From assembly GCA_001938485.1 (NCBI GenBank), contig MQRK01235035.1, positions 1 through 56,256 on the forward strand: a DNA stretch of 56,256 bases. The letters run 5' to 3'. This DNA is from Girardia tigrina (lineage: Eukaryota). The notes beneath the pieces are model-generated. The model saw nothing but the letters and a program-made list of their open reading frames with translations. It was not told the DNA's origin and made no database searches. Shown here piece after piece: positions 3,717 to 56,256 of this stretch (position 1 is its first letter; every line of letters starts with the position of its first letter). The translations under genes and the position numbers were made by a program.

Positions 3717-4739
3717 GGTATCCATCAATAAGATCGCGCACAAAAGGTCGCGCTTCAAAAGGTCGTGCACAAAATGTCGCCAAACAAAAGATCGACGGGC
3801 TAAAAAGATAGCCACATATAAGATCGCCTGCAGACCGCATTAATATCGCCTTTCAATTTTAGTTGAAATATTTACACAACTGACGCCGATTTCGCATTAG
3901 CAATACGCCAGTTAGCGGCACTAGCTTTCGTTCCTACTGATGACGTCACAACTGCCTTCGACGATCTTATGGAGTCAATTTTCTACCAGGCAAACAGCGA
4001 TATATTACGTGATTTGGTGAATTATTTTGAAGACACGTGGATCGGGCGACCAAATCGGCGAGGAAGAGGTCGAAGTGAACCAATATTTCCACACTCTCTT
4101 TGGAACTGCTACGATGCTTCCCTGGATGATCTTCCCAAAACAAACAATGCAGTAGAAGGTTGGCATCGAGGATTTAGCCAACTTCTAGGTGCTCACCATC
4201 CTACCATCTGGAAGTTTATTGACGGAATAAAAAANNNNNNNNNNNNNNNNNNNNNNNNNNNNNNNNNNNNNNNNNNNNNNNNNNNNNNNNNNNNNNNNNN
4301 NNNNNNNNNNNNNNNNNNNNNNNNNNNNNNNNNNNNNNNNNNNNNNNNNNNTGGACTTCGACCAATAACCGATTATCTCCGGGGTATTGCTCACAACTTG
4401 AGTTTGCAAAATTAAAAATAAAGACAATAGTCCGTAACTTTACTATAGACGTTTACAAAATAATTTACTATAATAACATTTAATATTTTTACTTATTCTT
4501 CTGATATTAGTCTAAATTGATTTTCGTAACTATTTTATACTACTTGCATATTTTATATAAGAATTTGAAAAAGAAAGTATTAAAATTTATATTAAGGTAT
4601 GGTGGCGCGATATTAATGCGGTCTGCAGGCGATCTTATATGCGGCTATCTTTTTAGCCCGTCGATCTTTTGTTTGGCGACATTTTGTGCACGACCTTTTG
4701 AAGCGCGACCTTTTGTGCGCGATCTTATTGACGTAAACC
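3717..4739 (+). mobile_element. Internally deleted MULE/Mutator element inserted in the Gypsy RNase H
   Basis: ~135-bp near-perfect TIRs with GG...CC ends; 9-bp TSD CAATATTGC (3708-3716, 4740-4748); transposase C-terminus YFEDTWIG..WN..PKTNNAVEGWH (ORF 3969-4415). Confidence 0.92.
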
Positions 4740-7843: not shown

Positions 7844-47778
<39,935 letters not shown>

Positions 47779-48163
47779 TTTTTTAAAAAACATTGAAATT
47801 TCAAATCACAAATTTTGACAGTATTGTTATTGAGAAATAAATCGGAAAATATGAATTTTGAAAACCAATTTTTTTCGTTTTTAAAAACAAAACTCAATAT
47901 ATCTATAGAATTGATTTTTTCAGTTTTTTTTCATCAAAAAAAATATTTTCTTAAATTTTATAATAGGATAATTTTGAAAAAAATTATTTTAAAATTAAAA
48001 AAACGTTTTTTTAATAAAAAGAAATTTGTTTAAATACTTTAATAGACTTGATTGTAAAAAATTCAATTTAGAGTATGTTTATGTGATTTTTATAAAAACG
48101 TTATATTTTCCAATTTTTCCAAATGAATATTTTTAATGGTCAATTTTTTTTCAAATTTTAGAT

Positions 48164-48601
48164 ATGGCATCGACCAGTGTTCCAAGTGTTCAAGTTTTTG
48201 GACGAAAAAAAACCGCGACCGCTGTCGCCCAATGCAAAGCCGGTAAAGGAAATATCCGAGTGAACGGTCACCCGATTTCTCTCGTTCAACCGTCCCCGTT
48301 GTACGCCAAGCTCCAGGAGCCTTTGTTGATCCTTGGAGAGGAGCGCGTCAAGCAACTCGACATCAAGATCCGAGTTAGTGGCGGAGGAAAAAACTCACAG
48401 ATCTACGCCATCCGACAAGCGCTCGCCAAATCCGTCGTCGCTTATTACCAGAAATTCGTCGACGAGTCATCCAAGAGAGAGCTGAAGGAGAGCTTCATCC
48501 GATACGACAGGAGCCTTCTGGTTGCCGACCCGAGACGCTGCGAGGCCAAGAAGTTCGGTGGACCGGGCGCGCGCGCTAGATACCAGAAATCTTACCGTTA
48601 A
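48164..48601 (+). CDS. RPS16: 40S ribosomal protein S16 (uS9), 145 aa, uninterrupted CDS
   Basis: [54 protein letters not shown]; AATAAA just after the stop. Confidence 0.98.
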
Positions 48602-52989: not shown

Positions 52990-54300
52990 TGGTATTTCAG
53001 CGACGCTGACCGCGATGCCTTTGAAGTTAAGCGTCCGTCTTTGCTTACACCACCGGATCCGACCACAACACGTGTGTTAAAGTTTTCTGAATTATTTTTG
53101 GGGCTACGCTCAACCCAAATCCGAGCCTGGTTAGACACTAAGATTTATTTTTATGATTTACGACTTGGTAAGACCACAGCAATTTGTCGACTATGATTTT
53201 CAAGTATGCCCGCCGCGGATCCACAATAACTAGGTTTCGTCCCATTCAGCACCAGGCTCTCGGCCGTGTAGTTGGAAGTTGACTCATTGAGTTTCATGTA
53301 ATCGAGAACCCGCCGAACTTTTTCTTTCGCCTCTTGCAACATTGCTATGAGAGGCAATGTCAGTTGCCATTGACCTTCACACTTCAGCATCAATTCTTTC
53401 GCTTTCCAGTTGTCGATTTCGGCACTAATCTCAATTTCGTGCAATCGTACTCAGCTACAATGTTGCGAACTGGCGGCACCCGCCCATATTTCCATTTCCT
53501 CGTGGCGGACCACGACGATACATCAAACACCACCCTGAAATCTTGATCAACGATACGAGTTGGCACAACGCTCTTCACTGCACTTATCCCGTTTCCCTGT
53601 CGATTTTTCTTGGTACTCGCTGGTGCTGCTACGGCATCCACGGGCGGTTCTTTCTGATCGCCTTTAAACTCATTCTGCTCTGGTTGAGATTTAATCACCT
53701 TGCAGCACAGAAACTGGTTCTTTCTCCTGCGACGCCTACGTTCATCCCTCCAATCGTCTTGATTACATCCATTCCTAAATTCATCTCCACTCCAATTGAT
53801 TTCAAACTTTGAGCCAACAAGACCTATTATTTCAACTGCTGCTCCCACACCTCAATCTCCATCTACGATCCATGCGTTACCACCGCCTGTCCAAGCCCTG
53901 TTTGCTAATTTTCGGATACCCGTTAAACTCGATCCGGTCGCACCAAGCGCTGCTCCATCATTTTACTGAATGCCCGTGTCGACCAGTGCTCCCACCATCT
54001 GCCCTGCGACGCGCACATCGACCATGGGCTACTGCGCATCGATATTCACAGGTACCCTACCTGCACAGAAGAGAGGGTCTGTTGATCTTTTCCCAACTTT
54101 TGATTTCTTTGCGGGCAGATCACGCAAAAATGATCTGATGTGCCGCATATAAAGCACACTCCGAAATTCTGAACCGATGACGGGTTTTGTTTCACTTCTG
54201 ACGTCATCTTGCAGTTCCGTTGAAGGTGACCATGCTGGTTGCATTTTAACCACCGTCTATTATCGAGCCGTAATTGATATTCCACGCTGATGCTACCACT
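52990..54300 (-). mobile_element. Gypsy-type gag-PR-RT remnant
   Basis: Knuckles LKCNQHGHLQRNC and CFICGTSDHFCVIC; ALVDTG protease; LPLIAMLQEAKEKVRRVLDY and TRLGFGLSVAPKI in RT. Confidence 0.85.
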
Positions 54301-54393: not shown

Positions 54394-55384
54394 CATTGAT
54401 AACAGAGTGTGTGGTGCAGTGGTGTGACTGCGGCGGATTGGTGACGGTGGCGACTCTATTGGCAGAGGGGAAGAACAAAATAATATCTCACGCGGAAAGA
54501 GAGGAAATCAAATAGAGTAATTTTTTTGTTTTTTAAGGTCATTAAATTCCGTGTCCTAGTTATTACTTAGTTAAACTTTATAGCCACAATTTTTCACACT
54601 TATTTTACAAAAATGATTATAAAAAATTTTTACATTATAAAAAACATTTTACATTATCACATTTATAATGTTCTATAGAAATAGTTAAATTTTTAAGTAA
54701 TATCAAGTCAATATTTAGTAAATATTGACGAGCTGACATAACATTCGACTCTCGCTAATCAGTGCATTATGTCACCGAATAAACGTGATTCTGGGGGATC
54801 ATCGAATTTGACCGGATTTAAGAATGTTGAAAATGTCATTCTTTAATCCAATCAAATATTACTAATCCTTTTTGATTTTTTTTTCAAAATATAAAGCATT
54901 AAAATTTTTATTAGTGTAGGAGAGAACGGAAGGTTTAAATGGCTTTGGTTTGAAAGTTATTTGTAAAATATTTAATGAAAAATGAACAGAAAAATATGAA
55001 TGTTTTATTTTTAATTTCAATCATGGAACTCATTTTTTACAGTCTTTCAATTGTGATTTAAATATCACGTATTTTACTTTAGTTTTTATAACTTAAAACT
55101 TCACATAAAAATATTTTATTATTTAAACGTCTCGAAGCAAAATGATCTATCATTTTTTAAACTGCAACCTTTTATGATTTTTTTCCGTTAAAATTATTAT
55201 TTATTTAAATTTTATAAGCCCGAAATTTTACTGTTAATCTAATAAAAACCATTTAGATATGCATTTCTCTATAACTTATTATATTTTCATCTGCTCTTTT
55301 TGTGTTTTAACTAATTCATTAAAGGAGATATGACTACGAGATTTTTGACAAAATGTTGAGACCTTCTAATTCTTTCCCCGCCAA

Positions 55385-55561
55385 CAGTAGTGGTAAAAAT
55401 AAGGTTATAATCCAAACGCAATTATTTTTAAAAAAACTAATTTAAAAAAAATAAATATATATTATATGCCATCAAAGATGGCATAAAAATATTTTTTTTC
55501 TTAATTTATTTTTCTTAAAAATATTTACCTCTAACTTATAACCTTATTTTTACCACTACTG
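55385..55561. mobile_element. 177-bp foldback MITE
   Basis: Perfect 26-bp TIR CAGTAGTGGTAAAAATAAGGTTATAA; central hairpin tatgccatc aaa gatggcata. Confidence 0.8.
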
Positions 55562-55604
55562 TAAAATAAATATTTTAAAATTTTAAAATTTTAATTCGAT
55601 CAAT

Positions 55605-55715
55605 AAAATTTTTTTTATTCAAAATTATTTTTTATTCAAAATTTTTTTTTATTCAAAATTTTTTTTATCTAAATTATTTTTATCTAAAATTATTTTTAAA
55701 AACTCAAATTATTTC
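55605..55715 (+). repeat. ~16-bp tandem repeat (AAAATTTTTTTTATTC), about 6 decaying copies
   Basis: Direct reading; immediately upstream of the ATPase ATG. Confidence 0.75.
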
Positions 55716-55723
55716 TAATAAAA

Positions 55724-56256
55724 ATGGATTATAAAAATTCAAAAAATTCAAACAATAATTGTAATCAAAACTCATTCACTCCAAAAGTATTAAATTTATA
55801 CAAATCGGATTTTACTAATCGATTCTTTCCGTCTAATTTTCGTTTACTTCTAATTGGTGAATCCGGATGTGGAAAAAACGTATTATTAATGGAAATGTTA
55901 ACAAGACCTGGATTTTTAGATTACACAAATCTAATATTTTATTCTACAACAGTAAATCAACCAGAATTACTTCTTTTAAAATATGCATTCCAAAATGGAA
56001 TAACAAAAGAAGGAATAATTAATATTTTTGAAAATCAAGAATTATTATATAGAATAGCAAAAAATGAATTAGGAATTAATCATATTCCATCTCCAGAAAT
56101 ATTAGTAGAAACATATTTAAAATTAGTTAAATTAAAATTTAGTGAAGAATATAGAAATCTTGTATTAAATTTAAATATTGAAAAAAGAATAAAAGTACAA
56201 TTTACAAATAAACCAGCAGATATTCAATCTTGTGATGATTTACCAAAAAAAGAAAA
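55724..56256 (+). CDS. Polinton/Maverick (adintovirus)-type A32-like packaging ATPase, 5' part, runs off the window
   Basis: 177 open codons: FPSNFRLLLIGESGCGKNVLLMEMLTRPGFLDYTNLIFYSTTVNQPE...; Walker A at 55856-55879; FLDY-NL and NQPE segments as recalled for Polinton ATPases. Confidence 0.75.
   Translation, partial: MDYKNSKNSNNNCNQNSFTPKVLNLYKSDFTNRFFPSNFRLLLIGESGCGKNVLLMEMLTRPGFLDYTNLIFYSTTVNQPELLLLKYAFQNGITKEGIINIFENQELLYRIAKNELGINHIPSPEILVETYLKLVKLKFSEEYRNLVLNLNIEKRIKVQFTNKPADIQSCDDLPKKE

Follow-up and report, generated by a model that had tools for sequence, protein, structure and literature searches.

The stretch of DNA analysed here, 56,256 nt of Girardia tigrina and hereafter called the window, is the whole of contig C235035 in an assembly of 1.43 Gb in 255,254 pieces. 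Its right edge holds the 5′ part of a packaging ATPase gene, preceded by short AT-rich tandem repeats, a terminal inverted repeat (TIR) that opens with a long imperfect palindrome, and one copy of a target-site duplication (TSD) (Table 1). The ATG at 55724 is followed by 177 stop-free codons reaching the last base of the window, in a frame that is free of stops from 55700, and re-reading this frame confirmed both the open run and the motifs quoted in a preliminary description of the locus: FRLLLIGESGCGKN, MLTRPGFLDYTNL and NQPE are all present. With an ORF GC content of 22%, the probability of an open run of 177 codons at the local composition is about 5e-8, and the run is thus not due to chance. 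The preliminary description had also taken the absence of lesions to set this ORF apart from the other mobile-element ORFs of the window, a distinction that does not hold: others also reach 200-300 codons, and siblings of the ATPase gene elsewhere in the genome are open over the same span in 48 of 56 readable cases, these 56 having been chosen as best protein matches, which favours open frames. The frame is open to its end in 13 of the 24 fully readable siblings, and six siblings stop within about 10 codons of the A-run at which the window ends, so that the window copy may or may not be intact.

Table 1. Positions of the features discussed in the text (window coordinates unless a contig is named).
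Feature	Position	Strand	Basis or remark
Target-site duplication GCCAAC, left copy	55380..55385	+	Partner end on C16452
Left terminal inverted repeat, ~260-340 bp in the ATPase (GKN) family	55386..55725	+	BLAST on 8 TSD pairs whose ends are unlike
Terminal imperfect palindrome, 175 nt, AGTAGT...ACTACT	55386..55560	.	Folding; present at ATPase and pPolB ends
Outer arm of the 26-bp stem	55386..55411	+	T at 55411 private to the window end
Central 9-bp hairpin TATGCCATC-AAA-GATGGCATA	55465..55485	.	Two-sided change in 5 of 9 pairs
Inner arm, inverted copy of the terminal 26 nt	55535..55560	-	Pairs with the outer arm
AT-rich tandem repeats of 16-17 nt before the start codon, copy number variable	55606..55703	+	Repeat family D1; length differs among copies
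Packaging ATPase, 5′ 177 of ~295 codons	55724..56256	+	A32/FtsK-type; contig end cuts the frame
Walker A variant GESGCGKN (Asn for Ser/Thr)	55856..55879	+	81 of 83 entries; 7 outside relatives in one clade
Helical, fast-evolving insert (residues 94-153) separating Walker A from Walker B	56003..56182	+	pN/pS; helical in the sibling model
Second-family elements, 14-16 kb	C197927:38139-53280, C220222:18106-31932, C224481:5325-20339, C234723:60214-76479		Palindromes at both ends

Elsewhere in the window lie an intron-less, full-length ribosomal protein S16/S9 frame (48137-48601, + strand; PF00380, E 5e-36), which may be a gene or a retrocopy, and broken DNA-transposon frames recognized by Pfam (MULE, mariner and DDE_1; 29792-30739, 39305-40380 and 43592-44095) or by eye (3867-4415, 21794-22769 and 37790-38515). 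A GC-rich segment at about 53000-54260 on the - strand resembles, by eye, the gag-protease part of an LTR retrotransposon. The stretch AGTAGT...ACTACT at 20182-20347 was dropped, having only the hexamers in common.

A count of genomic copies, proposed with the preliminary description, gave at least 151 matches to the ATPase protein (150 of the 1,685 candidates were scored). Full-length siblings of about 295 aa score above the cut-off of the Pox_A32 profile (PF04665; E 6e-8 and 2e-7), and the window fragment alone falls below it (18 bits vs 22.8). The presence of a Walker B motif had been left as a question; in the siblings it reads LVIFDD and lies about 4 codons past the position of the window edge, followed by RGRH and an SQ motif. 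Walker A, Walker B and the Arg finger expected of a packaging ATPase are thus all present, Walker A in a variant form. The structure model of a sibling has a pLDDT of 89, and its fold matches the HerA, STIV B204, mavirus, A32-type and adintovirus ATPases (TM ~0.4-0.5). The initial proposal of a Polinton/adintovirus packaging ATPase was therefore sound, and the identification of the ORF as the A32/FtsK-type packaging ATPase of an adintovirus-like Polinton/Maverick is supported. A PDB sequence search with the window fragment did return weak matches to Rab and ABC P-loop proteins (best E 0.04), as might be expected if the ORF were a P-loop NTPase of cellular origin or an accidental frame, a reading that has next to no probability and is refuted by the number of genomic matches, the Pox_A32 scores, and the Polinton termini, TSD and viral gene set described below.

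Across 60 copies, pN/pS is 0.11 in the ATPase core vs 0.95 in the insert between Walker A and Walker B, and the pairwise dN/dS of the copies drops to about 0.4-0.5 at higher divergence. This selection on the core acts while the element itself replicates and does not speak for retention of the window copy by the host; the earlier suggestion of an ORF under selection is right for the family and tentative for the window copy itself. In a search of sequencing runs, the best shares, 0.53 and 0.50, both came from DNA runs, and RNA runs gave small shares.

As the contig stops at 56256, the downstream genes were studied in sibling copies. A 16,770-bp element with TIRs and the TSD CATTTC lies on one contig (C223675:7234-24003), where the order of genes is ATPase, an integrase with a PLA2-like domain (PLA2-rve), double-jelly-roll capsid, a pX-like ORF, several unknown ORFs, protease-like and penton-like ORFs and, on the opposite strand, pPolB; several of its frames are broken. 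Its pPolB matches PF03175 (E 5e-16), carries the motifs DANSLY, YGKT and YTDTDS, and contains an Endonuclease VII/HNH domain (pPolB frame at L259:387-2894, - strand), a candidate for resolving the putative folded ends discussed below. The two frames upstream of pPolB have a C2H2 finger as their only Pfam match. In siblings, the rve integrase matches PF00665 (E 4e-11 and 8e-10), and two siblings have matches to PF21738 (E 4e-14 and 5e-14). Thus pPolB, rve integrase, double-jelly-roll capsid, TIRs and a 6-bp TSD, all of which the preliminary description had expected downstream, are present in this sibling. For the penton and the cysteine protease, also on its list, there are candidate ORFs of fitting size and place: the protease-like ORF shows H..L..D..G..Q..CG motifs by eye and only DUF3335 in Pfam (E 0.03), and the penton-like ORF has no Pfam match. 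Both are conserved in the second Polinton family of this genome (see below). There is no PLA2X fusion: unlike in the Alpha virion module of adintoviruses, where PLA2 is joined to a C-terminal pX (PMC8502044, in part), the PLA2-like domain is N-terminal on the integrase ORF and the pX-like motif lies in a separate ORF. As far as the consulted parts of the two sources extend, the sibling gene set is that of Polintons/Mavericks (PMC8502044, PMC8097293), which are common in animals and known from planarians (PMC8532177, in part). The 5′ part of the ATPase gene was seen at both ends of one insertion on C223675 and in the pair C15425/C64799. The corresponding 892-bp 'TIR containing ATPase' on C223675 and that pair were set aside as a probable assembly error, since the two ends match at 100%, one of them lies against a 50-N gap, and four of the six pairs with a class for each end are ATPase/pPolB; a real long-TIR variant is the less likely reading.

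Homology between the window and its siblings begins at 55386 with AGTAGT, directly after GCCAAC, and extends over 340 bp in the alignment with L031. As a duplication, GCCAAC occurs at exactly one element end in the genome, on C16452, a contig that holds 475 bp of element. About 340 bp of this end can be aligned with the window, and the ATPase start is missing from it, which fits a pPolB-side end. C16452 is probably the right end of the window element, a link that rests on a 6-bp match for which one to two chance pairs are expected per 27. A DNA search for the empty insertion site with the left flank returned only the window itself. The exact 28-nt terminus occurs 83 times in the genome; 80 termini were recovered, 79 of them with flanks, and these gave 27 pairs with a common 6-bp duplication vs 2, 1 and 1 for control hexamers. 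TSD-paired ends differ at 25 of 3,775 positions vs 2.3% for random pairs, and the window end differs from its TSD-matched partner by one substitution in 175 aligned bases, indicative of a young insertion, with the proviso that selecting termini by exact match favours young ends. The AGTAGT boundary, the TIR, the 6-bp TSD and the sibling gene set bear out the earlier reading of this DNA as the left end of an endogenous Polinton-like virus, and the near identity of the paired ends agrees with its description as recent; the terminal palindrome was overlooked. A break 116-119 bp inward of the terminus, within the palindrome, is seen in many contigs, and assemblies may thus hide this structure. By eye, several insertions (L031:1-1105, L006 and L023) lie in or beside apparent LTR retrotransposons.

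The first 175 nt of the element fold with -44.5 kcal/mol (z -9.6), a value reached by 0 of 200 shuffles. From the outside inwards, the fold comprises an outer stem of 25-26 bp, an unpaired stretch, an AT-rich stem with imperfections and, at the centre, a hairpin of 9 bp. At 55411, the last position of the outer arm, the T of the window stands against G in the partner end and the aligned siblings, and the complementary C is retained in the inner arm. The palindrome was found at both the ATPase and the pPolB ends. Across 19 arm variants, 16 of the 26 pairs of the outer stem show two-sided change and none shows one-sided change, 99.6% of the stem cells being paired. The covariation score of the stem is 0.49 vs 0.06-0.11 in slid controls and is reached by 0 of 500 shuffles; it is descriptive, as the 19 rows are related and were chosen for a perfect inverted copy, and kinship, with three main arm types in the first family, inflates the covariation counts. 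When termini were picked by their outer arm alone, the inner copy was perfect in 37 of the 43 readable ones, had one mismatch in five and was truncated in one (37 further termini were unreadable or too short for this check). Closely related termini differ at two to four stem positions, each time on both arms. No comparable terminal palindrome was found in 42 outside loci (3 viral and 39 metagenome contigs), most of which are too short to reach an end. Our preferred reading, to which we give a probability of about 55%, is that the window ends in the left end of a young Polinton whose conserved tip palindrome likely folds back on a single strand, re-creating a flush AGTAGT/ACTACT end.

The arms could also act in duplex DNA as a pair of binding sites, for the integrase or the packaging ATPase or as a promoter of the first gene. 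Selection, or conversion now and then, would keep them alike, and single strands would not need to fold. The stem positions that never vary (AGTAG, A11, A16, G19, T23 and A24) do resemble a protein footprint, the ATPase gene begins about 160 nt inside the inner arm, as would suit a promoter or binding site, and both Polinton families retain a motif at about positions 26-33 that is confined to the outer side. However, in binding sites a change on one side alone would be tolerated at variable positions, and there is none among the lineage variants; pairing continues through the middle of the palindrome, where the central hairpin covaries too, and the palindrome is also present at the pPolB end. 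We consider this explanation distinctly unlikely.

The asymmetric middle of the palindrome occurs in one orientation only. An outer-type arm was found at the inner position in 0 of 79 cases and an inner-type arm with a host flank in 0 of 43; 42 of these 43 inner-type arms are preceded by an interior motif and the remaining one lies at a contig start (another check found one more interior arm). The flip and flop orientations of a parvovirus- or poxvirus-type telomere were thus not seen among the 79 outer-type and 43 inner-type arms. In AAV and poxviruses, nick-and-transfer or dimer resolution inverts an asymmetric middle and gives rise to two orientations. The single orientation seen here bears on the idea that the 3′ hairpin itself primes DNA synthesis, as in parvoviruses and poxviruses, with protein priming bypassed or secondary. 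The geometry would suit it: the 3′-terminal ACTACT forms a flush pairing with the inner AGTAGT, from which synthesis could run on into the element. Copying of the arms would follow from self-priming, and the Endonuclease VII/HNH domain of pPolB could resolve the ends. Hairpin priming of this kind has been proposed for the palindrome-ended Halocafeteria virophages and PLVs (Model D in the part consulted of 10.64898/2026.07.28.741278), although the same part of that work ties palindromes mostly to elements that do not have pPolB. The single orientation argues against the simplest self-priming model, which predicts two, as do the protein-primed type of the polymerase and the 3-nt repeated tip of the element, and we regard self-priming as unlikely.

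The same genome harbours a second Polinton family with a canonical GKT ATPase, proteins 30-44% identical to those of the first family and another gene order. Its TSD is readable in three elements. Ten palindromes of 164-191 nt with perfect stems of 18-28 bp were found on six of the nine contigs examined, no terminus being found on the other three. The arm sequences are unrelated to those of the first family and the palindrome design is the same. It is very unlikely that the palindrome is a functionless by-product of template switching at free ends, mechanically regenerated, since its length (152-198 nt), its stem (mostly 24-28 bp) and its polarity are kept in both families despite wholly different arm sequences. 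Such an origin would draw on the signs that ends are shuffled: a copy with 94% identity in the ATPase bears another terminus type (L002, on C240415), two termini are nested at C197927:52672-53280 and half of a palindrome is repeated at C222998:5833-6187. We take these three loci as signs of end exchange.

How might a folded tip serve the element? Among the proteins encoded by Polintons are a protein-primed polymerase and an rve integrase; the replication of these elements is thought to pass through a single strand with pairing TIRs (PMC11161782, PMC8097293 and PMC4046053, each in part). If the palindrome folds as we propose, each end of a displaced or looped-out strand would snap back over 175 nt, with no need to await a 17-kb TIR panhandle, and the terminal 26 nt would pair with their inner copy to form a duplex that is flush and does not differ from the normal end. 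The terminal-protein/polymerase complex or the integrase, if not both, would act on this folded duplex of 25-28 bp. The folded 3′ end may at times be trimmed and refilled on the inner-arm template, so that the arms would be copied and not merely co-selected, which would account for lineage changes always affecting both arms. The refilled end would then be cut or stopped at ACTACT, possibly through 3′ processing by the integrase, the weakest step of the proposal. Copying cannot span the whole palindrome, since an unpaired stretch of 7-12 nt and imperfect middle stems persist, and refilling from an inner template that has no natural stop counts against the mechanism.

The P-loop of the ATPase is unusual. 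It was overlooked in the preliminary description that Walker A reads GKN and not GK[S/T]. This is the case in 81 of 83 genomic entries, a few of which are one copy seen in overlapping loci, and both Asn codons, AAC and AAT, are used. Seven outside relatives, 46-75% identical, likewise have GKN. Among 144 homologs with a readable Walker A, 132 have Ser or Thr and eight, the window included, have Asn. In a quick tree of the top 70 homologs by score and one genome copy, a branch with an SH-aLRT of 99 separates the GKN rows from all others. No report of a GKN packaging ATPase was found in the literature searched, which lay outside the founding Polinton papers, Repbase and supplements. The P-loop Ser/Thr at this position binds Mg, and its replacement by Asn is a classic inactivating change in other NTPases, which counts against an ATPase that still serves in packaging. 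The GKN protein may have lost ATP hydrolysis and persist in a structural or adaptor role, the GKT-type Polinton family in the genome supplying the packaging function; the loss of the Mg-binding residue retained by most homologs and the existence of that family speak for this possibility, to which we give somewhat less than an even chance. It is opposed by the conservation of Walker B, RGRH and the SQ motif within the GKN clade over about 50% divergence and by the purifying selection under which, on the pN/pS evidence, the ATPase core of this clade stands. We rather favour a GKN protein that hydrolyses ATP and would still work in packaging, with altered Mg/ATP handling. The non-hydrolysing reading concerns the ATPase only, is compatible with every reading of the hairpin and has odds separate from theirs. 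The fixed GKN P-loop offers a natural test of whether the A32 motor needs the Ser/Thr-Mg contact.

We know of no demonstration of how Polintons leave the chromosome and restart replication, and the standing model demands that two ends 15-20 kb apart pair with each other. A covarying local hairpin at each end would be a short, concrete substrate, which opens the question to tests in vitro and to searches of any genome. Taken further, and only tentatively, the ends of animal Polintons may be kept in a telomere-like manner, the tip folding on an internal copy 150-170 nt away and being rewritten from there, such that a local duplex serving as origin and integrase substrate would replace the 15-20-kb 'racket'; this feature would be old, widespread and overlooked, and one lineage would run its packaging motor with Asn in the Mg-binding position of the P-loop.

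Several known systems share parts of this design. AAV ends fold back with a perfect outer stem and occur as flip and flop; the putative terminal fold-back and the perfect outer stem of the Polintons described here are similar, without flip or flop. The adenovirus ITR has a 3-nt repeated tip, protein priming and a long-range panhandle and no local palindrome; the repeated tip and the presumed protein priming are similar here, and only here is there a local palindrome. Casposons, in the part of PMC4046053 consulted, are also self-synthesizing, some with palindromes inside their TIRs, and have a single-strand panhandle model; they differ in being prokaryotic, in using a Cas1 integrase and in having no common descent with Polintons. 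Palindromes in TIRs beside the TSD of integrating Preplasmiviricota elements, with a proposed role of hairpins in replication, are described for endogenous Halocafeteria seosinensis virophages and PLV subtype 4 in the excerpt of 10.64898/2026.07.28.741278 that we consulted. Those palindromes are 52 nt long (subtype 5) and belong mostly to non-pPolB protist elements, whereas the present ones are three times longer and lie in pPolB-bearing elements, and covariation and a single orientation are shown for the present Polintons. The nematode/oomycete pPolB2 with an HNH insert (10.1101/2023.08.22.554363, in part) resembles the sibling pPolB in this domain, which in the sibling is of the Endonuclease VII/HNH type.

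The closest known systems are the Polintons/Mavericks (Polintoviricetes) and the adintoviruses of Starrett et al. 2021. No report of terminal palindromes in animal Polintons was found in the literature searched, which lay outside the founding papers, Repbase and supplements, any of which may show them; 'hairpin' and 'palindrom' have no match in the available text of PMC8097293 and the nematode Polinton preprint, and the portions consulted of PMC4642659, 10.1101/2022.07.28.501842 and PMC6431247 hold nothing on terminal palindromes or a GKN ATPase. According to the same partial sources (PMC8502044, PMC8097293), Polintons and adintoviruses both have AGTAGT...ACTACT ends, a 6-bp TSD, TIRs of a few hundred bp and a length of 14-17 kb, and share with the present elements pPolB, rve integrase, the A32/FtsK ATPase, the double-jelly-roll capsid, protease-like and penton-like ORFs and PLA2-like and pX-like domains. 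In contrast to both as described in these sources, each TIR here opens with a palindrome of 152-198 nt and Walker A is GKN, and in contrast to adintoviruses as viruses, the present elements were seen as integrated copies only. The ATPase gene taken alone is ordinary and the element belongs to a class that is well known and common; the interest lies in the hairpin ends and the P-loop variant, not in the ORF itself.
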